Notes: generated by a model not told the origin, from the sequence alone. 33,154 nt of DNA from Methanobacteriota archaeon (GCA_043799545.1 JAZDNO010000008.1:1-33154); one strand, 5' to 3'. Shown: positions 2,336 to 33,154, numbered from the stretch's first letter. Program-made: numbers and translations.

Positions 2336-3310
2336 ATGCCCAATCCGTTCGGCAAATATCCGATCAGCTCCGCCGTGAAAAAATACATAGAAGCGACAAG
2401 GCACTTCTACGCCCCAGAAACGCAAGCCTACCGCGGGAGGAAGCTCCGGTACATACTGAACGCGATGAAAACATTAGGCGCTCCGGAGAACCCGACGAAG
2501 ATAGGCAAAGAGGATATACTGAACTGGATGGACTGGATGGAGAAGAAAGGGCTTGAAGGCTCCACCAAGCGCAAGGCGTTGAGCATCCTGGGCGACTACC
2601 TCAGATACTACGACAACGACTGCGTCAAGAAGATGCTCGACAAGAGGTTGCTGAGGATGCCGTCGGACGCGCGAAAGGAGATAAAACACCTGCCCGAGGA
2701 CGCTATCCAGCGCATCCACAACACGACGCTGACGATGGAGGGCTGGGAAGGCGCGGTCGCCAGGTTCATAACGATGGCATACCCGTACACGGGCCTGCGC
2801 CCGAGCGAGCTGAGGACGATAGCCTACGCGGACTTGGACCTTTCCACATGGACGATGGCGGTCAAGCATCCAAAGGGTGAACGGTCATACGGAACGCAGA
2901 GGGTCATTGGCATACCAAGCATGATTCGAGAGGCGGTCGCCGATTACCTGGAGGAGCGCAGAACCTACCTGGAGGCGCACGGCGCCCCCGAGAACTCTGC
3001 ACCCTTGATACCGTACATCTGTCGCAAAGGCGTTGAATACTGGCGCTACCAAAGCCTGGAGAACCTGAAACTGGAGATAGAGAAGCAGGTAGGGTTCAAG
3101 TTCAAGCTGAAGGACTACCGCTCCTCGTTCTGCCAGATTGCGATAGACCGGGGCGCAGCGTTGCAGGCAGTATCGAAAGTAATGGGGCACGGAACAACCA
3201 AGACAACTGAGTCCTACTATGGACGAATGAGGGACGAACCCGCGATTGCGGAGATAGAAAGGGCGTTGTCGAAGCCCAACGTCAAAAATCTAATACCCCC
3301 CGTACTATGA
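2336..3310 (+). CDS. int: Tyrosine recombinase/integrase
   Basis: TGLRPSEL (R), KHPK (K), KDYR (K/H-x-x-R), MGH and TTESYY (H, Y); ends 20 bp from a tRNA 3' end; start codon uncertain (2336 or 2171). Confidence 0.9.
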   Translation: MPNPFGKYPISSAVKKYIEATRHFYAPETQAYRGRKLRYILNAMKTLGAPENPTKIGKEDILNWMDWMEKKGLEGSTKRKALSILGDYLRYYDNDCVKKMLDKRLLRMPSDARKEIKHLPEDAIQRIHNTTLTMEGWEGAVARFITMAYPYTGLRPSELRTIAYADLDLSTWTMAVKHPKGERSYGTQRVIGIPSMIREAVADYLEERRTYLEAHGAPENSAPLIPYICRKGVEYWRYQSLENLKLEIEKQVGFKFKLKDYRSSFCQIAIDRGAALQAVSKVMGHGTTKTTESYYGRMRDEPAIAEIERALSKPNVKNLIPPVL

Positions 3311-3330
3311 AAAAGCCAGTAAAAAGTATA

Positions 3331-3404
3331 TGGGCCCACCCGGATTCGAACCGGGGATCTTCACCTTGTCAAGGTGACGTCATAACCAACTGGACCATAG
3401 GCCC
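3331..3404 (-). tRNA. tRNA-Val(GAC), CCA not encoded
   Basis: Reverse strand GGGCCTA...TCACC-TTGACAA-GGTGA...CCCGG-TTCGAAT-CCGGG-TGGGCCC-A folds as a cloverleaf. Confidence 0.95.
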
Positions 3405-22022: not shown

Positions 22023-22153
22023 CCTCGCAAAGAAAGCATTTGGAGCAAAGTAACTCGGACCTCGCCTGCTCGGCTCGACCGGCATTTTCACCTCGCAAAG
22101 AAAGCATTTGGAGCAAAGTAACTCGGACCTCGCCTGCTCGGCTCGACCGGCAT
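22023..22153. repeat. Intergenic tandem repeat, 2 x 63 bp identical (period 68)
   Basis: CCTCGCAAAGAAAGCATTTGGAGCAAAG...GACCGGCAT at 22023-22085 and 22091-22153; partial degenerate copy at ~22001-22020. Confidence 0.9.
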
Positions 22154-23224: not shown

Positions 23225-25984
23225 ATGGCCCGAGAGGTTCCGGTTGGGCGCGAGGACGAGCTCAGGAGGCTTATGGGTTCGCTGGCCTCGGCCGCGAAGG
23301 GCAGCGGCTGCGCGGTCGTGGTCTCGGGGGAGCCGGGCATAGGCAAGAGCGTCCTGGCGGCCGAGGTCGCCGGGCGGGCCCGGGAGATGGGGTTCGCAGT
23401 TACCGCCGGCGCTGCCAGCGGGGAATCGATGGAGCCGTTCCTCGTCTTCTCGGGGGCGCTCGATGCGCTTGCTGATGGGCGGCTCTTCGAGCTGGACGAG
23501 CGGACGGGCTTCTCGTCAGTCATGGCGCTGGACACGGCGAGCGGCGAGGTCGTGGCTAGGGCAGGCGGGGTCTCGCCGGGGCCTACGGCCGAGACTTTTT
23601 CCGGCATGCTCGCAGCCGTCCAGAGCTTCATCGGCGACTCGCTGCGGGTGGGGGGCGGCTCGCTCGGGCGTTTGGAGCACGGCGACACCAAGATACTCAT
23701 CGAGCCGTCGGGGGGCATCTCGATTGCCGCAGTCCTGGAAGGGGCCGAGGGCCCGGAGATGCGAGCGGCCCTCAAGGCCGCGGCGGAGAGGATTGCCCGC
23801 GAGCCAGGCGATGTCCAGCGCGCGCTCGACTCTCTCGCGGACGCACGCTTTTCCGTCAAGCGGGGGCTCGATGGGGTCAAGCTTGAGAACGAGCGAATCA
23901 GGATCGCCGGCGCTGTGCTGGACGCCGTCCACGCGGCGGCGGCTGAGAAGCCCCTTTTGCTGGTCCTGGAGGACCTCCACTGGGCGGACGAATCGTCGCT
24001 CTTCGCGCTGCGCTACGTCGCCAGGAACCTGGGCGGCTCGAAGGCCATGCTGCTCGCCACCGCCAGGCCGTCCGAGGGCTGCGGCTTCGCCCGAACCCTG
24101 GCGGCCATGAGGGGGGAAGGCTCCGTCGCGGAGGTCGCTCTCGCTGGCCTCGGCCCCGCAGGCGTGCGCGGCCTGGTCGATTCTTTCGCCAGCCCGAACG
24201 ATTTTCCGTTGGCGTTCGCGGAGCGCCTCCACCGCGACTGCGCTGGCAACCCGTTCTTCGTGTCGGAGCTGCTGAGGCAGATGCTGGCGGAGGGGGCGCT
24301 AACACGGCGCGACGGAAGATACACACTGGCACGCGACGGCTACGCTATGCCCTCGTCCGTCGGCGAGGTCGTGAACCGGAGGCTCGAGTCCCTCGACCCT
24401 GACGCGATGGCGCTCGCCGAGTACGCATCGTGCATGGGGCGCGAGTTCGAGGAGGGCGCGGTCCTCTCCGCGCCGTCGCTGGAGAACCCCCGGGCGTCGC
24501 TGGAGAAACTCCGCGCCGCGGGCATCGTCGCGGTCGAAGGCGGGTCGGGCGCGTTCTCCCACGCGCTCTTCCGGGCGGCCGTCTACGAAAGCATGGCGCC
24601 CCGCTGGCGCTCCGCGCACCACAGGAGCATCGGCGAGCATTACGAGCGTGCGTACGAGGGCAGGCTGGACGAGGCCGCCTACGAGCTCGCGAGGCACTTC
24701 TCCGCGACCGCGGAGCACGCCAAGGCCTACTCGTACAGCGCGATGGCGGCGGAGGCCGCTGAGTCTTCCTTCGCGCCGGAGCAGGCGCTCTCCCTGTACG
24801 CGGAGGCGCTGTCGCGCGTCGGGCGCGTGCCGGAGCCACGCATCGGCGCTTCCGGGCTGCGCGAGCGCATGGGAGACCTGAGGACGCTCCTTGGGGAGTA
24901 CCCGGCGGCGATTGCCGACTACGAGCGGGCGTTCGAAGACGGGGGCGGCGCGGCCGGGAGGGCCGCGCTAAGGAGGAAGTCCGCGCTCGTCCGCTCGCGC
25001 CAGGGGGACCACGCCGGCGCGATGGCCGAATGCCATGCAGGCCTGGAATTGATGGGGAGCGCGGAATGCGGCGAGAAGGCCCGCCTCCTGGGCCTGCGCG
25101 GCTGGACCGAGTACATCATGGGGAGCGCAGACGCGGCGCTCGCGACAATCGGCGAGGCGCTCGGGATTGCCGAGCGGACTGGGGATGCTGAGGAGGTCGC
25201 GATGTGCCACCACCGCATCGGGACGATTCACGGCTCGCGATGCGAGTTCTCGCTCGCGACCGAGGAGCTTTCGCTGGCGCTCTCCGCTCGCGAGGCGCTG
25301 GGCGACCTTCGCGGCATGGCCGCGACGGAGGGAAACCTCGGGATTACCTTCAGGGACATGGGCGACCTGGCCGGGGCGGCGGAGCACCACGGGCGGAGCC
25401 TCGATCTGTTCAGGAAGCTCGGCGACAGGGCGGGCTTGGCGAACGCGCTGAACAACCTGGGCGTCGTGGCCCGGGACAGGGGAGACCTCCGGGGGGCGTA
25501 CGAGCGCCAGGACGAGGCGTTCCGCATCCGCGAGCGCATCGGCGACATGCGCGGCATAGCCATGTCGCACAACAACATGGGGAACATCCTGAAGGACATG
25601 GGGGAGTTCGGGCGGGCCCTGGAGCACCACCGGCGGAGCCTGGCGCTGCGCGAGACTACGGGGGACCGCGGCGGCGCGGCCGCGTCGCATTTCAACATCG
25701 GGGACGCGCTCATGGCGGCAGGGAGGACCGGCGAGGCCCTGTCCGAGCTCCGGGAGTCCATGGCCCTCTGCCGCGAGACGGGCTACGACCACCTGCGCGT
25801 GCACGTCCACTACGGCCTGGCGGAGGCGCTGGAGAAGACTGGCGACGGCGCGGGGGCGCTGGCGGAGGAGGAGGAGGGGCTCGCGCTGGCGCGGAAGATG
25901 GGGCTCGGGGAGGAGACCGCGAAGGGGGAGGCGCTCGCCGCGCGGCTGGACTCTTTGCGCGGGCGGAAGGCCGGCGCTCCGTGA
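23225..25984 (+). CDS. STAND-class AAA ATPase with TPR repeats (paralog 1)
   Basis: VGREDEL, GEPGIGKS Walker A, LLLVLEDLHWAD Walker B, GNPFF, C-terminal TPRs (ANALNNLGVVA, AMSHNNMGNIL). Confidence 0.9.
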   Translation: MAREVPVGREDELRRLMGSLASAAKGSGCAVVVSGEPGIGKSVLAAEVAGRAREMGFAVTAGAASGESMEPFLVFSGALDALADGRLFELDERTGFSSVMALDTASGEVVARAGGVSPGPTAETFSGMLAAVQSFIGDSLRVGGGSLGRLEHGDTKILIEPSGGISIAAVLEGAEGPEMRAALKAAAERIAREPGDVQRALDSLADARFSVKRGLDGVKLENERIRIAGAVLDAVHAAAAEKPLLLVLEDLHWADESSLFALRYVARNLGGSKAMLLATARPSEGCGFARTLAAMRGEGSVAEVALAGLGPAGVRGLVDSFASPNDFPLAFAERLHRDCAGNPFFVSELLRQMLAEGALTRRDGRYTLARDGYAMPSSVGEVVNRRLESLDPDAMALAEYASCMGREFEEGAVLSAPSLENPRASLEKLRAAGIVAVEGGSGAFSHALFRAAVYESMAPRWRSAHHRSIGEHYERAYEGRLDEAAYELARHFSATAEHAKAYSYSAMAAEAAESSFAPEQALSLYAEALSRVGRVPEPRIGASGLRERMGDLRTLLGEYPAAIADYERAFEDGGGAAGRAALRRKSALVRSRQGDHAGAMAECHAGLELMGSAECGEKARLLGLRGWTEYIMGSADAALATIGEALGIAERTGDAEEVAMCHHRIGTIHGSRCEFSLATEELSLALSAREALGDLRGMAATEGNLGITFRDMGDLAGAAEHHGRSLDLFRKLGDRAGLANALNNLGVVARDRGDLRGAYERQDEAFRIRERIGDMRGIAMSHNNMGNILKDMGEFGRALEHHRRSLALRETTGDRGGAAASHFNIGDALMAAGRTGEALSELRESMALCRETGYDHLRVHVHYGLAEALEKTGDGAGALAEEEEGLALARKMGLGEETAKGEALAARLDSLRGRKAGAP

Positions 25985-26045: not shown

Positions 26046-26831
26046 TCACGACGGCCTCAACGTGCCAACGAAGACCTGCCAGGCGAGCGCGGACTTAGCG
26101 ACGAGGCTCAGCACGACGTACATCCTCTCGCCGTATAGGTAATCCTTCCACTTCCCCACTTTCTTGTACTGGAGCACCATGTTGATTGCGAAGACGTTGA
26201 AGAAGAGCCCCATCGAGAGGAAGATGTAGTAGACGAACGTCGGCGGGCCGCCTCCGTCTCCGCCGGCTCCGAAGAGCCAGATGGCGATGACGACCCACGG
26301 GACCGCGCCCGCGATGCACCCGAAGATGAACGTCGACCAATCGGTCTTCTGGGTGAACTGGTTGTACTTCTCCATCTCCAGCCCGAAGAGAATCATCATC
26401 ATGTTGAGGAAGAACGCCAGCATGAGCGTCCCCACGTCGTACACCCCGACGAGCATCGAGATTACGACAATCATCACGGAAGAGCTGAGCGCGTACTCGT
26501 ACCAGCGGTACTTGTTGATGCCCTTCTTCAGCCCCTCCACGTACTTCGGGTAGAGGGATGTGGCTATGAGGAGATGCGCGGTCGCGGATATGAACAGGAA
26601 GCACGCGACCAGGGGGCCTATCCGCAGGTCGAAGAGAACCTCAGATGCCGGGACTAGGGCCGGCATCCCGCCCGCGCCCGTGCCCGGAGCCGCCTCGAGG
26701 AAGCCCCTCGTGACGGGCAGCGTGAAATCGTTGCTCAGCGCCAGCATTGCCAAACCCTGGACGAGGTGGAATATCCCCATCACTAGGTTGAAACTCTTCA
26801 GCTTCCCGAACTTGATGTCTTCTTCGGACAT
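26046..26831 (-). CDS. Heliorhodopsin (261 aa)
   Basis: FNLVMGIFHLVQ, AHLL, NKYRWYEYALSSS, GCIAGAVPW, YGERMYVVLSLVAKSALAWQ (retinal Lys in SLVAK); true start ATG 26831 inside ORF 26046..27281. Confidence 0.95.
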   Translation of the reverse strand: MSEEDIKFGKLKSFNLVMGIFHLVQGLAMLALSNDFTLPVTRGFLEAAPGTGAGGMPALVPASEVLFDLRIGPLVACFLFISATAHLLIATSLYPKYVEGLKKGINKYRWYEYALSSSVMIVVISMLVGVYDVGTLMLAFFLNMMMILFGLEMEKYNQFTQKTDWSTFIFGCIAGAVPWVVIAIWLFGAGGDGGGPPTFVYYIFLSMGLFFNVFAINMVLQYKKVGKWKDYLYGERMYVVLSLVAKSALAWQVFVGTLRPS

Positions 26832-26929: not shown

Positions 26930-29851
26930 ATGAGCGGATTCGTGGGGCGGGAGGCCGAGCTAAAAGTGCTGGTCGACGCGCTCGGACGCGCCTCCGCCGG
27001 GGCAGGCTCCTGCGTGCTCGTCTCCGGCGAGCCAGGAATCGGGAAGTCTCGGCTGGTCGAGGAGGTAAAAGCCCGCGCGAGGGCATCGGGCTTCGCCGTT
27101 CTGGAGGGCGCGTGCTCCGCAGACGGCGGCGAGCCCCTGCTTCCGTTCTCGAAGGCGCTGGGGGCCTCCCTGTCGCTCGGGAGGGGATTCGCGTCGTTCT
27201 CCTGTGCGATGCTGCTCGACAGCTCGGGTAATGCCTCGGCGCAGGGGGGCGATTCCGGAATCGACGCGGCGCCCCTGGCAAGCATGCTCGCCGCCGTTCA
27301 GAGCTTCGTCAGGGACTCCTTCAGCGGCGGCGGCTCCCTCGGGCTGCTGGAACACGGCGGGAGGAGGATACTGGTCGAGAAGGCGGGTGAGGGGGCGCTG
27401 GCCGCCGTCATCGAGTCCGAGGAATCGCCGGAGATGCGTCCCGCTGTGAAAGCCGCGGCGGAGGCCATTGCCAGGGAGCCCGCCTCTGCCGCGCGGGCGC
27501 TGGAATCTCTCACGCGGAGGAGCTTCGCGCTCCGCAAGGACTTGGACGGGGTCAAGCTCGAGAACGAGCGCATCCGAATCGCCAACGGCGTTCTGGATGC
27601 CCTGCGCGGCAAGTCCTCCTGCTGCCCGGTCCTGCTCGCTCTCGAGGACGTGCATTGGGCCGACGACTCGACCCTGTTCGTGCTGGGCTACCTCGCGCGC
27701 AACCTGGGCGGCATGCGGTGCGTGCTCTTGGCCACCGCCCGCCCGTCCGAAGGCGCCGCCGTGCAGAAGGCGCTCGCAGGCATGCGCGCCGACGGCACCA
27801 TCGCGGAGGTCGCGCTGGCCGGGCTGGACCTGGCCGGGGTCAGGGCGCTCGTCGATTCTTCGTGCGGCCCGAACGATTTTCCGCAGGATTTCGCAGAGCG
27901 CCTGCACCGGGACTGTGCGGGAAACCCGTTCTTCGTCTCGGAGCTTCTGAAGCAGATGCGCGCCGACGGGGCAATCGCCTTCGCCAACGGCAGGCATTCG
28001 CTGGTTCGGGACGACTACGCGATGCCCTCGTCCATCGGCGAGGTCGTGCGGCTCAGGCTCGAGTCCCTCGACCCGGACGCGATGGCGATGGCCGAGTACG
28101 CCTCGTGCATCGGCAGGGAGTTCATCGTCGACGCCGCGCTGTCTGCGCCGAACGTCGCCGAGGCGAGCGGTGCCATCGAGCGCCTTCGCGAGGCCGGGCT
28201 CGTCAGCGTCGCGGGGGATTCCGGCGCCTTCGGCCACGCCCTCTTCCACGCCGCGGTCTACGCGAGCATCGCGCCGAGATGGCTGGTCGCGCACCACCGG
28301 CGCATCGGCGACTATTACGAGCGGCGGTTCGCGGACGGTCTGGACGAGGCTGTCTACGAGTTGTCGAGGCACTACTCGCTCGGCGAGGAGCACTCAAAGG
28401 CGTTCCGCTACTCGGTCATGGCCGCGGAGAGGGCGGAGGGCCAGTATGCCCCGGAGGTCGCCGTGAAGCACTACGCCCGCGCCATCGCGTCCATCCTGAA
28501 ATGCTCCGAGCTGGCCGGCGAGGAGGCGAGGGTCCGGACTCGGATGGGGGAGAACTACCATTTCATGGGCAGCCTCGAAGACGCGGAGAGTGCTTACCGC
28601 GAGGCGCTGGAGGTGGCGGAGCGTCGCGGGGAGAGCCCAGCAATCGCCCGCGCCTGCGTCGCGCTCGGCCACCTGATGTGCCTCAAGCCGGACTACGACC
28701 AGGCGCTCGCGCTCACGGAACGGGGGATGGCCATGTTCGCCGCCGCCGGGAACGACGCGGGCGTCTTCTCCGCCATGACGAACCAGGGCTTCGTGCACTT
28801 CTACAAGGGGGAGCACGCGCAGGCTCTCGAGCTCTACTCAAGGCAGCTCGCCCTCGCCAAGAAGATGGGGGACAGGCTCCGCGCCGGAAAGGTCCTGAGC
28901 GACATCGGCGGGATATACTGGGAGACTGGGGAGTACGACAAGGCGGTGGAGAACAACCTAACATACCTCGGGGTCGCGGAGGAGCTCGGGGACAAGGGCG
29001 CGATGAAGGACGCGCTGTCCGGCCTTGCGAACGTCACGTTCTACCAGCGCAAGTTCGCGGAGGCCACGGGATACTACCGCAGGCTCGTGGACGTCGCCCA
29101 CGAGTCTAAGGATATCTTCTCGGAGAACCTCGGCCTGATTGGGCTCGGCGCGACTTACGAGGCGCTTGGAAGATACGGCGAAGCACTCGACGCCGTCGAG
29201 CGCGTGCTAGCGGGGGCGAGGCGGACGGACTATAGGCAAGGGCTCCCGTACGCGCTCATCTACCGCGGCAGGGCTGCGATGGGCTCCGGCGACTACGAGC
29301 TCGCCCTATCGAGCTTCCAGGAGGCGCTCGACGTCGCGGTATCCACGGGAACCAAGCGCTCGATATGCTTCGCAGAGTCTTGCCTCGGGCAGCTCTGCAG
29401 GAGGACGGGCCGCGCCATCGAGGCGGAACAGCACCTCGATTCCGCCGCCTCCGTCGCCCGGGAGGCGGGGAACTTCCACGTCCTGGCCGACAGCCTGAGC
29501 CAGATGGCGGAGATTCGCTTCGAGGCGGGACGGTTCGACGATGCTAGGGCGCTCAACGCCGAGGCGATGTCCGTCGCCGGGGAGATACACAGAGAGGGCG
29601 CGCTCTTCTCGGCGCGCGTTTTGGAGGCTCGGCTCCTTTCGGTCCAGGATAAAGTGGCCGGGGCTGCGAGGCTCGAGGCGATGCTCGCTGGGGCGAACGA
29701 GCGCGAGCGCGCGGAGCTGACCTACCAGCTCTACCGCATGACCGGCGACGCAGCGAGGAGGGCGGATTCCAGGGCGTTGTATTCTGCGCTCTACCGGACC
29801 GTGCCGAACGCGATGTACAGGGAGCGCATGGCGGAGCTCGAACTAGGGTGA
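26930..29851 (+). CDS. STAND-class AAA ATPase with TPR repeats (paralog 2)
   Basis: FVGREAEL, GEPGIGKS, LLALEDVHWAD, GNPFF, many TPRs; clearly homologous to 23225..25984. Confidence 0.9.
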   Translation: MSGFVGREAELKVLVDALGRASAGAGSCVLVSGEPGIGKSRLVEEVKARARASGFAVLEGACSADGGEPLLPFSKALGASLSLGRGFASFSCAMLLDSSGNASAQGGDSGIDAAPLASMLAAVQSFVRDSFSGGGSLGLLEHGGRRILVEKAGEGALAAVIESEESPEMRPAVKAAAEAIAREPASAARALESLTRRSFALRKDLDGVKLENERIRIANGVLDALRGKSSCCPVLLALEDVHWADDSTLFVLGYLARNLGGMRCVLLATARPSEGAAVQKALAGMRADGTIAEVALAGLDLAGVRALVDSSCGPNDFPQDFAERLHRDCAGNPFFVSELLKQMRADGAIAFANGRHSLVRDDYAMPSSIGEVVRLRLESLDPDAMAMAEYASCIGREFIVDAALSAPNVAEASGAIERLREAGLVSVAGDSGAFGHALFHAAVYASIAPRWLVAHHRRIGDYYERRFADGLDEAVYELSRHYSLGEEHSKAFRYSVMAAERAEGQYAPEVAVKHYARAIASILKCSELAGEEARVRTRMGENYHFMGSLEDAESAYREALEVAERRGESPAIARACVALGHLMCLKPDYDQALALTERGMAMFAAAGNDAGVFSAMTNQGFVHFYKGEHAQALELYSRQLALAKKMGDRLRAGKVLSDIGGIYWETGEYDKAVENNLTYLGVAEELGDKGAMKDALSGLANVTFYQRKFAEATGYYRRLVDVAHESKDIFSENLGLIGLGATYEALGRYGEALDAVERVLAGARRTDYRQGLPYALIYRGRAAMGSGDYELALSSFQEALDVAVSTGTKRSICFAESCLGQLCRRTGRAIEAEQHLDSAASVAREAGNFHVLADSLSQMAEIRFEAGRFDDARALNAEAMSVAGEIHREGALFSARVLEARLLSVQDKVAGAARLEAMLAGANERERAELTYQLYRMTGDAARRADSRALYSALYRTVPNAMYRERMAELELG

Positions 29852-29914
29852 CCGACGCGCACTTTCGGGGTCCCCCTTTGTAGGGTTAAATAGTCCCGCG
29901 GGAATTCACATCCG

Positions 29915-30370
29915 ATGAAGTATGCGGAGCGCCGTTCGAGGCACACAATCACGATGCTCACCGACCACATCGTGTTCACGCCGAAGTTCCGGGCGCCGAT
30001 ACTGGTGGGTCCGGTCGGACGGGCGTGCGACAGGATGATACGGGACGTTTGCGCCAACATCGGTGTCTCCGTGCTGGACCTGGCAGTGAACGTCGACCAC
30101 GTGCATTTGTTCATCAGGTACCCGCCGGAGCTTTCCGCGTCGAAGGTGGCCGAGAAGATAAAAACCAACGCCTCCCGCGAGCTGCGGGAGAAGTTCCCTG
30201 AATTGAGGGCGTGGTGCAGGGACGCGCTTTGGGCTCCGGGCTGCTACCACGGATCAGTCGGTCAGGGCTTCGACGTTGTGGAGAGGTACATTTCTGCGCA
30301 GAGAAACGAGGAGGTGGCGCATGGGGAGAGGAGGAGGCTTGACGGGGTTGCTGGAGGTTATAGAAAATGA
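29915..30370 (+). CDS. tnpA: IS200/IS605-family Y1 HUH transposase (TnpA), no tnpB
   Basis: HIVFTPKFR, DHVH (HUH), LWAPG, ERYISAQ (catalytic Y); TATA-like TTAAATA at ~29886. Confidence 0.9.
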   Translation: MKYAERRSRHTITMLTDHIVFTPKFRAPILVGPVGRACDRMIRDVCANIGVSVLDLAVNVDHVHLFIRYPPELSASKVAEKIKTNASRELREKFPELRAWCRDALWAPGCYHGSVGQGFDVVERYISAQRNEEVAHGERRRLDGVAGGYRK

Positions 30371-30396: not shown

Positions 30397-30403
30397 GAAA
30401 CCC

Positions 30404-30455
30404 CGGTAGCCAGCCAGGTTATGGCCGAGGACCAATCGGACTCCGTATCCACAGC
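30404..30455 (+). pseudogene. Degenerate partial copy of the downstream tRNA
   Basis: AGCCAGGT, GGCCGAGGACCAAT and CCGTATCC are shared in order with 30497-30581. Confidence 0.6.
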
Positions 30456-30496: not shown

Positions 30497-30581
30497 GCCG
30501 GGGTGGCCAAGCCAGGTATGGCGATTGGCCGAGGACCAATAGGATCCCGTATCCTCGCGGGTTCAAATCCCGTCCCCGGCG
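30497..30581 (+). tRNA. Atypical class II tRNA: anticodon GAG (Leu) with C33 and Ser-like body
   Basis: GCCGGGG/CCCCGGC acceptor, G73, ATTGG-CCGAGGA-CCAAT anticodon arm, AGGAT-CCCGT-ATCCT variable arm, GCGGG-TTCAAAT-CCCGT T-arm; TTATAAAT ~20 bp upstream. Confidence 0.8.
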
Positions 30582-30787
30582 CGGATCCTTAATAGAAAGG
30601 AAGGGGGGGAGGAAATCCTTTACCCAAGTCTCGCGACCGCCCGATGGGTGGCGAGGCCGCACGCATATAGTTAGCAACAAGCCTCGTCTGTAAGGGCGGG
30701 GTATAGAAGCTTATATTAGCTATTATTACTATATTGTATAGGATATAATATGATGGGAGCGCGTGACTTGGGCGAGGGCGAATAATA

Positions 30788-30815
30788 GTCACATGTGACA
30801 AAATCATTTAAATAT
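30788..30815 (+). promoter_or_regulatory. Palindrome GTCACATGTGAC followed by TATA box TTTAAATA
   Basis: Perfect 12-bp palindrome at 30788-30799; TATA ~22 bp before ATG 30830. Confidence 0.55.
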
Positions 30816-30829
30816 ACTCTATACGATGT

Positions 30830-31216
30830 ATGTTTATGGATAATAAAGTAAGAAAAAGAATAATAATCTTATTGGGAACTATTTTAATAATTTCACTTAT
30901 AATACTAGCATATTATTTTCCATTTTTTGGTTACTGGCGAATAGAATCGGGAATGACTGAGACAACAGTAAAAAACATCATGGGCACACCTGATTTTATT
31001 AATGGATTTACTATCGGAGAGCCATTTTTTGGCCCCAGACCAGATTTGCCAAATGGTACATATTTTATCTCCTGGACATATCATGTTAGAGATCAAATTA
31101 TAGGCATTACTTTTATATCTTCTTTAGATTACGATAACATTACTGGATATCATATTTCGACCACAGATTATGTCGTTTTTGAGAAACATAATCATTCAGA
31201 TAGTATTGTGTACTAA
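30830..31216 (+). CDS. Cassette ORF 1: TM anchor plus SmpA/BamE-like domain
   Basis: AT-rich; N-terminal TM helix; IESGMTETTVKNIMGTPD fits the I..GMT...V...G.P pattern. Confidence 0.7.
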   Translation: MFMDNKVRKRIIILLGTILIISLIILAYYFPFFGYWRIESGMTETTVKNIMGTPDFINGFTIGEPFFGPRPDLPNGTYFISWTYHVRDQIIGITFISSLDYDNITGYHISTTDYVVFEKHNHSDSIVY

Positions 31217-31224
31217 CTAAATTT

Positions 31225-31528
31225 TGAGCCCGACGCCCTCGACCGTGCACTTCATACTATCGACGAGAGGTCGCGTGGATGCCTCGCCGGAGCATCCCCG
31301 TCCAAGATTTGACGGCGGGACAGGGGTGCGCACGGTTTTCGCGTATTGCAGCTCCATTGGCTGGTTGTATCCCAACTTTGCCGTGGTACTGTATGCCAGC
31401 ACTTGGGAGCGGGTGGAAGAGCGAAAATCTGAGGTCCAACCGAAGGACGGGGTAGAGAATTATTTAAGGAGTGACGTACATACAGAGCTTGTGAAACAAG
31501 CGTATAGGAACCGTCACTTGGGAGCGAA
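31225..31528 (+). repeat. Structured inter-ORF repeat R1
   Basis: Shares CCTCGACCGTG, GAGGTCGCGTGGATGCCTCGCCGGAGCATC, GTGCGCACGGTT, AATCTGAGGT, GGACGGGGTAGA and ATAGGAA-CGTCACTTGGG with R2 and R3. Confidence 0.92.
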
Positions 31529-31542
31529 CGGAGGAGTGGTCG

Positions 31543-31962
31543 ATGCTAAGTAAACGAGATTATCAGGTTATTATAATATCAACAATTACTATTTTTCTGT
31601 TAGTCCATCTTACTTTTTTATTCATGGGTTTATGGTATTCTGTTGAATTTGTTTTTTATGAGTTTATTTTTGTTTTTTTATCCGTTGGAATCCCAATAAT
31701 AATTTGGTGCACGTTATCAACACATCATGATTTAAGATTGATACGATACTGGTTTATTCCAATAGTATACATGATGTTTATGGATATTTATTGGCTAATG
31801 CAAGGATATTATCATCTTCGTGCTTTTCCAACCGATTCGTTTGAATATTATGCAGCCTCTGAATTATTAGAAAGCCAATGGCTACATTTAGGAGTGTGGT
31901 TGGTGATATTATTCATTGGTAGGTTTTGGATATCCAAGATGCAATATAAGACCACTCCGTAG
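31543..31962 (+). CDS. Cassette ORF 2: hypothetical multi-TM protein
   Basis: AT-rich, 139 aa, hydrophobic segments; fills the space between R1 and R2. Confidence 0.75.
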   Translation: MLSKRDYQVIIISTITIFLLVHLTFLFMGLWYSVEFVFYEFIFVFLSVGIPIIIWCTLSTHHDLRLIRYWFIPIVYMMFMDIYWLMQGYYHLRAFPTDSFEYYAASELLESQWLHLGVWLVILFIGRFWISKMQYKTTP

Positions 31963-32258
31963 TGAAGCTCCCTCGACCGTGAACTCCATCCCATCGACGG
32001 GAGGTCGCGTGGATGCCTCGCCGGAGCATCTCCGTCCATGTATTGACGGCGGGACAGGAGTGCGCACGGTTCGAGCGACTCAGGCAATCTGGGCTGGTTG
32101 TATCCCCACTTTTGGGAGGAACTGCATTTCTGCTGTTTGGAGCGGGATACAAAGCGAGAATCTGAGGTTCAACCGAAGGACGGGGTAGATATTTATTTAA
32201 GGCACGCCACGTATTTCAGCGCCGTGAGCGCGAATAGGAACCGTCACTTGGGAGCGAA
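31963..32258 (+). repeat. Structured inter-ORF repeat R2
   Basis: 77 nt (32001-32077) identical to R3 (32704-32780); same blocks as R1. Confidence 0.92.
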
Positions 32259-32260
32259 GG

Positions 32261-32668
32261 ATGAGTGACTTGAAGAAGGAACTGGATTATCAAATTAACA
32301 AGTTAGTAAATGATTTATCTCACACAGAAGTTTATCAGCGAAAACATGCGGCTTGGACATTAGCTAGACTTGCACAAAAAGGGAAAGCAGAAAAGATTGT
32401 TAGTGCTGGTGCAGTTTCGAAGCTGGCTAAATGTCTATATGATAACGAATTGATTGTGCGATATCGTGTGGTTTGGGCATTAAGTATGTTAGCAAAACAT
32501 GGACAAAAGAAAGCGGTTCTTGAAGCTGATGTGGAAGCCACTCTTAGCAATATGATTGATGACAACAATGAAGTAGAAATATGCCATCCACAAACAAATG
32601 AGATGATTTATACTACACTTGGTAATCTGGCTAAAGAAGCAATAGGATATCTACATAACGAATCCTGA
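32261..32668 (+). CDS. Cassette ORF 3: HEAT/armadillo-repeat protein
   Basis: RKHAAWTLARLA...GAVSKLAKCL..VRYRVVWALSMLA; AT-rich; its TGA stop is the first bases of R3. Confidence 0.75.
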   Translation: MSDLKKELDYQINKLVNDLSHTEVYQRKHAAWTLARLAQKGKAEKIVSAGAVSKLAKCLYDNELIVRYRVVWALSMLAKHGQKKAVLEADVEATLSNMIDDNNEVEICHPQTNEMIYTTLGNLAKEAIGYLHNES

Positions 32669-32958
32669 AGCGACCTCGACCGTGAACACCCAGTAATCGA
32701 CGAGAGGTCGCGTGGATGCCTCGCCGGAGCATCTCCGTCCATGTATTGACGGCGGGACAGGAGTGCGCACGGTTCGAGCGGCTCAGACATACTGGGCTGG
32801 TTGTATTCCCACTTTGGGGAGGAACTGCATTTCTGCTGTTTGGAGCGGGATACAAAGCGAGAATCTGAGGTCCAACCGATGGACGGGGTAGAGATTTTAA
32901 ATAGGTCCAATCTCATAACAGAGCCCATGAAATGGGCGAATAGGAAACGTCACTTGGG
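32666..32958 (+). repeat. Structured inter-ORF repeat R3
   Basis: Same conserved blocks as R1 and R2. Confidence 0.92.
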
Positions 32959-33154
32959 GATGAGCGTCTCCGCCGTAGGTTGTGGGCTCGTCTAGAATGC
33001 ACATGTCCGTAGGCGTTCGGTGGTCCCCAAATCCTTTTCAACGCTGGCTATATGAAACGAAAATTCCAAGTAGTAGAGGCGACATGTATGCACAAGGCGG
33101 GTTCGCAACGGCTATCGGGCTTTGCCGAAAGGGGGCGCGTTTTTAGCCCCCCGT

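Follow-up and report, generated by a model that had tools for sequence, protein, structure and literature searches.

Which kind of system has assembled an array in which AT-rich genes alternate with a long conserved repeat at the end of an archaeal contig, and which enzyme serves it? The window analyzed here is the entire 33,154-nucleotide (nt) contig (C25) of a 2.06-Mb metagenome-assembled genome (MAG), 94% complete, of an uncultured Thermoplasmatota archaeon. From position 30830 onward, three plus-strand AT-rich open reading frames (ORFs) of 128, 139 and 135 amino acids (aa) alternate with GC-rich repeats of about 300 nt (R1 to R3), and an IS200/IS605-type Y1 transposase gene, tnpA, lies just upstream. 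The initial annotation had described these ORFs and repeats, and both are confirmed in the sequence; the contig also ends inside the array, and a fourth, truncated cassette after R3 has to be added. We hold with moderate confidence that the array belongs to a platform for gene capture, operated by a domesticated HUH transposase that acts on folded single strands, and that the cassettes are cargo-carrying mini-elements that end in an expanded copy of the platform's right end.

Cassettes and their folded repeat

In the window, the GC content of the ORFs is ~23-40%, that of the repeats ~50-61% and that of the upstream host genes 60-74%. The repeats are 79-86% identical in pairwise comparison and share a 30-nt block without any difference (31267-31296, 32001-32030 and 32704-32733). 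ORF2 (stop codon TAG) and ORF3 (TGA) run right up to the repeat that follows them, and their start codons lie 21 and 9 nt, respectively, past a conserved GTCACTTGG; the identical block and the tight junctions had both been noted before and hold on inspection. The arrangement is not due to chance. The same repeat is present on five more contigs of the genome (C15, 1-1585; C28, 6340-12398, minus strand; C12; C20; and C11), and the position of several of these copies at contig ends indicates that the assembly breaks inside arrays. In every array of the genome, the repeat lies on the strand of the adjoining AT-rich ORFs, and a search of the genome contigs gave zero copies outside the arrays. The repeat was also found in four related MAGs, from groundwater and similar sites, and on 37 metagenome contigs, always between co-oriented AT-rich ORFs.

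The repeat is a structured element. Alignments of 17, and later 50, distinct full-length copies, drawn from this genome, from three related MAGs and from metagenome contigs, were folded with RNAalifold and a pair count, with pairing partners slid by 1-3 columns and 500 shuffles as controls. The resulting fold has 38 pairs in 8 helices and is 97% paired, compared to 30-42% in the slid controls; changes on both sides were found at 22 pairs, compared to 3-9, and 0/500 shuffles attained the observed values. G-U cells were far above A-C cells in the alignment, which indicates that the coding strand is the folding strand. The repeat could fold as either RNA or single-stranded DNA and the data are compatible with both; we infer that DNA is the folded molecule. 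Three modules can be told apart: M1 (~60 nt, with a covarying 5-bp helix), a core (~165 nt, closed by a 7-bp stem with two almost invariant G-U pairs) and M3, which contains a TATA-like box, a small hairpin with strong covariation, and the invariant GTCACTTGG. The TATA-like box stands between the core and the small hairpin in every aligned copy, and pairing between the M1 and M3 ends of a repeat is compatible with the alignment, without covariation.

The boundaries of the repeat, CCTCGACCG and GTCACTTGG, are unlike R''/R' boxes, and no Rfam 15 family matched it (E up to 1 on 4 kb and E up to 10 on one repeat), in agreement with the earlier view that it is neither attC nor a clustered regularly interspaced short palindromic repeat (CRISPR). 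An attC site is a single imperfect hairpin of 57-141 nt bounded by RYYYAAC and GTTRRRY. CRISPR arrays have 23-50-nt repeats, noncoding spacers of 25-50 nt and cas genes; here, the repeats are 300 nt, and what lies between them are coding units of 400-1700 nt. We also rejected an origin as a copy of a resident RNA gene (RNase P, signal recognition particle RNA or tRNA), as the genome has no matches to the repeat outside the arrays, and a reading as TnpB-associated omega-RNA, as the genome has no TnpB.

The cassette proper also has a conserved anatomy. A leader (after GTCACTTGG) and a trailer (before M1) occur in matched types and hold arms that flank the cargo, complementary within a cassette and different between cassettes. 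The arms have a median length of 10 bp, compared to 6 bp in mismatched leader-trailer pairs, and reach at least 10 bp in 61% compared to 7%. Since the arms are variants of shared consensus sequences, they amount to covariation across 400-1700 nt of cargo. In cassettes with a short leader, including that of ORF2, the arms span the ribosome-binding region and the last codons or the stop codon; those of cassette 2 are GGAGTGGTC and GACCACTCC and can be drawn by hand as a 3-4-3 bulge-helix-bulge-like motif. A long leader with ~75 conserved nt (window 32958-33040) is common to the truncated cassette 4, to C20 from 24547 onward, to contig C220 of genome G001 and to the first cassette of C12 in genome G002; loci with this leader include L072 (from 1741 onward) and L095. 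It heads unrelated, larger cargo (secreted proteins in G001 C220), and the cargo diverges after the leader.

The cargo does not resemble the host genome. GC at four-fold sites is 33% in cassette genes compared to 76% in host genes (66 cassette ORFs), the difference is present in every host genome of the order, and the cassette pool keeps its own composition. The initial annotation had spoken of single foreign ORFs, which is slightly too narrow, as many cassettes carry two-gene toxin-antitoxin pairs. Among 87 cassette ORFs scanned, the recurring families were ParE/RelE (10), PIN (10 over three PIN-family models), HicA, MazE, Fic/Doc and GNAT, and many ORFs for small membrane proteins had no match. 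Such cargo is typical of sedentary integrons. The assignment of ORF3 to the HEAT/ARM repeats was upheld by Pfam, and ORF2 had no Pfam match. Cargo-less units exist as well, in which M3 is followed by 12 nt and then M1. At the other extreme, a low-GC island on C12 of this genome (57800-73600, L136) between an M3-like part (59648-59718) and an M1-like part (72900-72983) may be a giant cassette; it contains a 3591-aa ORF and has an IS200 tnpA of a second lineage at one end (58482-58985, minus strand) and a tyrosine recombinase gene at the other (C12:73575-74495).

Cassette content turns over between genomes. Only 4 homologous pairs of cargo were found among 120 ORFs of four genomes, and related genomes share almost no cargo at syntenic origins. 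One two-gene cassette is common to two families with 78% nucleotide identity, and the similarity stops at the repeat start. Two metagenome strains differ by exactly one cassette plus repeat, and identity resumes in the downstream cassette at ACTTGG, directly after GTC. The initial annotation had recommended a wider search for the repeat, a comparison of strains and the identification of a linked enzyme; the first two gave the results above, and the third is taken up below. It had also named two outcomes that would speak against a cassette system, and neither appeared: the repeat does not occur dispersed over unrelated sites, and relatives do not have these ORFs as a fixed or syntenic set.

The array origin and its neighboring transposase gene

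On the 3' side of tnpA in the window follow, in this order, a partial tRNA-Leu, a complete tRNA-Leu, a compact M1-like stretch, a hairpin, an AT-rich stretch, CGTGACTTGGG and cassette 1 (Table 1). Across 18 sites from relatives, hardly any variation is seen in this array origin, and variable cassette leaders begin directly after ACTT(G/A)G. A 27-nt origin pattern was present in 15/22 genomes of the order and in 0 of ~280 other genomes of the class, and reversed-pattern controls gave 0 hits; within the genomes searched, the cassette system appears to be restricted to a single order of uncultured Thermoplasmatota. In 12-13 genomes, the distance between one origin and an orthologous tnpA is 0.1-2.4 kb, and further origins without tnpA in the same genomes suggest action in trans. 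Of the 18 origins, 12 have a stretch of at least 7 nt, 55-105 nt on the 5' side of the hairpin, that is perfectly complementary to the cut-site region (9% in shuffles), and this guide-like complement covaries with the site (GAC with GTC at origins, CAC with GTG in cassettes, from M1 bases).

The layout of the origin is also found in ordinary insertion sequences (IS). Downstream of tnpA, outgroup multi-copy IS200 elements have a hairpin, an AT-rich stretch, CGTGACTT and then a cassette-like leader. From this common layout it follows that the origin is the right end of an IS200-type element and that each repeat is an expanded copy of it. By homology to the outgroup IS200, a subterminal right-end hairpin with a nearby candidate cut site can be placed on one strand.

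The HVH and Y-I-x-x-Q motifs of TnpA are intact in the translation of the window gene, its orthologs in genomes of the same order are 55-89% identical, and the origin-linked TnpAs form one clade (support 98/97; 100% of bootstrap trees). This lineage has one copy per genome in 13 same-order genomes, at a syntenic locus and with a tree that broadly follows host families; several near-identical copies at unrelated sites, as expected of an IS, were not found. All three Y1_Tnp matches of the genome lie at array starts. Taken together, the right-end origin, the proximity in 12-13 genomes and the single TnpA clade lend strong comparative support, at the level of sequence, to the earlier suggestion that the adjacent Y1 TnpA drives the array. 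On C28, the array opens with a cassette that is an AT-rich ORF of 452 aa (C28:10918-12276, minus strand) and matches Y1_Tnp weakly (36.8 bits).

The surroundings of tnpA are partly conserved. In G001, G005 and G002, the orthologous tnpA is preceded at a distance of 60-70 nt by a CACTTTCGG-like motif. Genes for tRNAs or tRNA-like molecules are found beside tnpA in six relatives; 87-90-nt tRNA-like genes called as Phe(gaa) flank it in G004, G007 and G010, and G004 (L055) has a duplication of the entire block (hairpin, fragment and tRNA-like gene). In G008 (L054), G015 (L058) and G014 (L062), the full tnpA is closely followed by a second, partial copy of its C-terminal half. In at least three genomes, tnpA adjoins the same AAA_16-TPR gene, which in the window is the second (26930-29851) of two paralogous plus-strand AAA_16 + TPR (STAND-like) genes; the first is at 23225-25984, and they have 74-78% DNA identity at a spacing of 3675 nt. 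A heliorhodopsin gene (26046-26720, minus strand; Pfam E 4.4e-90) lies just upstream of this second TPR gene, tnpA and the array. Farther away, the window has a perfect 63-nt tandem duplication with 68-nt spacing in an intergenic region (22023-22153) and a tyrosine recombinase gene (2690-3404; PF00589, 42 bits) adjoining a tRNA-Val, possibly a separate integrated element.

Table 1. Features of the tnpA locus and the array in the window; repeat limits are approximate
Feature	Coordinates	Strand	Description
CACTTTCGG motif	29860..29868	+	~50 nt upstream of tnpA; candidate left flank or target of the resident IS200-type element
Y1 (HUH) transposase gene tnpA, IS200/IS605-type	29915..30370	+	151 aa; Pfam Y1_Tnp PF01797, E 3.8e-25
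tRNA-Leu middle, partial copy	30400..30455	+	Direct repeat 30422-30450 / 30526-30554, 90% identity; also in G001 and G004
tRNA-Leu(GAG) gene	30497..30582	+	Between tnpA and array origin; ARAGORN, Rfam 53.5 bits
Guide-like octamer	30623..30630	+	Exact complement of 30766-30773
Origin hairpin	30678..30704	+	6-bp stem, two G-T wobbles, 10-nt loop; compact, bare form of the repeat-core closing stem
AT-rich promoter-like stretch	30705..30773	+	Ends in CGTGACTTGGG (30763-30773), candidate cut and insertion site; cassette 1 starts after it
Cassette 1	30774..31225	+	ORF 30830-31216, 128 aa, N-terminal transmembrane helix, no Pfam match; GC 23-39%
Repeat R1	31226..31521	+	M1, core and M3, ending in GTCACTTGG; nhmmer E 1e-97
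Cassette 2	31522..31969	+	Leader with 9-bp arm 31533-31541; ORF 31543-31962, 139 aa, several transmembrane helices; complementary arm over last codons
Repeat R2	31970..32251	+	M1 31970-32011; core 32012-32187
R2, closing stem	32012-32020 with 32181-32187	+	Fold and covariation
R2, TATA-like box	32190-32202	+	Fold and covariation
R2, covarying hairpin	32219-32231	+	Fold and covariation
R2, GTCACTTGG	32243-32251	+	Fold and covariation
Cassette 3	32252..32675	+	ORF 32261-32668, 135 aa, HEAT/ARM; Pfam Cnd1 5.8e-9, HEAT_EZ 1.2e-6
Repeat R3	32676..32957	+	nhmmer E 4e-96; 86% identity to R2
Cassette 4, start	32958..33154	+	Cut by the contig end; long conserved leader type

Proposed mechanism and alternatives

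In the mechanism that we favor, a resident and vertically inherited IS200/IS605-type element (tnpA and its right end) would be the platform, and the cassettes would be its nonautonomous relatives, each composed of a conserved leader, one AT-rich gene or a pair of such genes, a trailer pairing with that leader and the ~300-nt expanded right-end copy. This copy would be made up of a guide-like M1, a stem whose loop has grown to the ~165-nt folded core, the TATA-like box, the small hairpin and a GTCACTT cut-site motif. The Y1 HUH transposase would cut and rejoin the folded coding strand at these motifs, and circles would be excised and reinserted in the way that IS608 TnpA excises circles and reinserts them. 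TnpA would in effect be a single-strand site-specific recombinase, the counterpart of IntI on folded attC. Since every unit ends in the right-end motif of the platform, each insertion would recreate the target, giving head-to-tail stacking in one orientation. Each captured gene probably also obtains a promoter and untranslated regions from the repeat, and a role at the RNA level may coexist with the DNA role. The anatomy, the fold, the confinement of the repeat to arrays, the turnover of cassettes and both the linkage and the homology to the IS200 right end are observed; movement of the cassettes, catalysis by TnpA and a crossover between ACTT and GG are what we infer from these features. A wider claim, which we put forward tentatively, is that the order as a whole runs integron-like capture with a domesticated Y1 HUH transposase replacing the tyrosine recombinase, with an IS200 right end with a grown hairpin loop as the site and with the same element equipping captured genes with a promoter and with untranslated regions that pair. 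Cassette capture would then have been invented independently, on single-stranded DNA.

Several observations weigh against this mechanism. The cassettes have no local left-end hairpin, only the long-range arms, and IS608-type elements need such a hairpin; the distance between guide and hairpin also greatly exceeds that in IS608. The repeat at the end of an array is truncated (M1 and the start of the core), which a simple unit of cargo plus full repeat does not predict. There were no circular contigs, and no excision product, circle or base-resolution empty site was seen. Depletion of C on the top strand at four-fold sites was not found; the strand skew of the cargo is small (0.07 at four-fold sites), and a deamination-type skew is weak. 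In roughly half of the genomes, tnpA and the origin point in opposite directions, and the second tnpA of this genome (on C12) is of another lineage. Lastly, a single crossover point was sought in strain mosaics and not found; the breakpoints fall at four module borders, among them trailer-M1, M1-core and core-TATA, and also inside the core. Breakpoints at several borders are expected from homologous recombination among 300-nt repeats as well, and their variety indicates that the long repeats also exchange segments, so that the mosaics do not reveal any one crossover point.

An alternative that we take seriously but consider unlikely, and the best of those that we weighed, is that the repeat acts mainly as RNA, as a structured 3'/5' untranslated module (promoter, leader, terminator or stabilizer) that pairs the ends of cassette transcripts. 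Some cassettes would then present a bulge-helix-bulge to the archaeal splicing endonuclease and give circular or processed RNAs, while the arrays would grow by homologous recombination or through an unlinked recombinase with tnpA merely adjacent. The sense-strand fold with its conserved G-U pairs fits this picture, as do the TATA-like box in every copy, the short-leader arms that include the ribosome-binding region and stop codon and are drawable as the canonical 3-4-3 motif, and the mosaic repeats, which are a sign of frequent homologous exchange. However, a generic finder for the motif (two 3-nt bulges on opposite strands, 4 bp apart, between helices) scored 54% of true and 39% of mismatched leader-trailer pairs and is hence not specific, so that the motif is kept as a minor hypothesis, and the long-leader cassettes lack it. 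A role as RNA also leaves unexplained why the origin is an IS200 right end, why the linkage between origin and tnpA is kept across four families and why the same flanks surround unrelated cargo.

It is improbable that the repeats are gene-less IS200 derivatives, similar to palindrome-associated transposable elements (PATEs) or miniature inverted-repeat transposable elements (MITEs), which inserted singly into the spacers of an older island of accessory genes without any gene capture. The right-end-like parts of the repeat and the existence of empty back-to-back repeats would agree with this. In contrast, the absence of copies outside the arrays of this genome does not, and the cargo is accompanied by its leader and trailer boxes and covarying arms, which are part of the cargo side. 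Related genomes have almost no cargo in common at syntenic origins, and the four-fold-site GC of the cargo relative to that of the host argues that the cargo genes are not old residents.

We give very little credence to a tyrosine recombinase that builds the arrays in trans, as in integrons or tRNA-targeting islands, since, despite such genes 1-6 kb from some array ends (G000 C12:73938, G002 C12:27481 and G003 C1:277425) and the tRNA-Leu gene adjoining the window origin, none adjoins the origin in the window, G001, G005 or G002 C18, there is no consistent partner across genomes, and cassette borders have neither short direct repeats of a tRNA 3' end nor attC-type boxes.

Relation to known systems

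The closest known systems include the IS200/IS605 elements, with IS608 as the paradigm, which are excised as single-strand circles and inserted 3' of a short target. The Y1 HUH transposase with intact motifs, the one fixed orientation and the homology of the array origin to the right end of related multi-copy IS200 copies are common to both, and so is the order of guide on the 5' side, strand-specific subterminal hairpin and cut site on the 3' side, which is that of IS608 ends. In contrast to these elements, tnpA is here a vertically inherited gene with one copy at a syntenic locus, the mobile units carry cargo genes but lack a transposase, the loop of the right-end hairpin is expanded to a ~165-nt covarying fold, and units stack in tandem at the right end instead of being scattered, with no obvious local left-end hairpin. 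PATEs and MITEs are short, gene-less and dispersed, whereas all copies of our repeat are in arrays and bound cargo.

The arrays are similar to integrons and clusters of attC sites lacking integron-integrases (CALINs), including the archaeal integrons (Ghaly et al. 2022, PMC9668308), in their co-oriented, mostly one-gene cassettes, in the folded strand-specific site after each gene and in the conserved origin near an enzyme gene that is sometimes divergent. High turnover, content that varies between relatives and cargo rich in toxin-antitoxin pairs, GNAT and small unknown proteins are further similarities. The differences are in the parts. There is no IntI and no attC; the site is ~300 nt long and multi-branched (at least 8 helices) with other boundary motifs, the linked enzyme is an HUH nuclease and not a tyrosine recombinase, each unit has a TATA-like box, and cassette-specific arms flank the cargo instead of lying inside the site. 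The absence of IntI from the window had been noted at the outset; the genome has four PF00589 matches (two on C10, C12:73938 and C25:2690), none of which adjoins an array start, no IntI-specific model having been run, and at the PF00589 level, no array start is adjoined by a tyrosine recombinase gene in five relatives either.

A similar association of a domesticated, single-copy Y1 enzyme with a family of folded repeats is known from repetitive extragenic palindromic (REP) sequences and bacterial interspersed mosaic elements (BIMEs) with their REP-associated tyrosine transposases (RAYTs, or TnpA-REP). However, REPs are 20-40-nt hairpins that flank the RAYT gene, are located in intergenic regions genome-wide and carry no genes, whereas the repeats here are found only in arrays, where they bound cargo. 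To our knowledge, the known RAYTs are bacterial. We found no published description of such arrays in the literature on integron-like systems, IS200, domesticated Y1 transposases, archaea or Thermoplasmatota, and in the main survey of Y1 proteins, the TnpA of archaea is listed as nothing more than ordinary IS (Quentin et al. 2018, PMC6006769).

With parts as small and well defined as these (a 151-aa enzyme, a ~150-nt origin and a 300-nt site), cleavage and strand transfer lend themselves to direct tests in vitro. Should the link to the transposase fail, the repeat is still a large and strongly covarying structured element without an Rfam family. If the proposed mechanism is true, these arrays would be a second and mechanistically unrelated route to the integron solution of storing and exchanging single-gene cassettes, and no domesticated Y1 transposase before TnpA would have had a defined role in archaea. 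The mechanism would also explain the fast-turning pool of toxin-antitoxin, acetyltransferase and surface genes of non-host composition in uncultured groundwater and sediment archaea.

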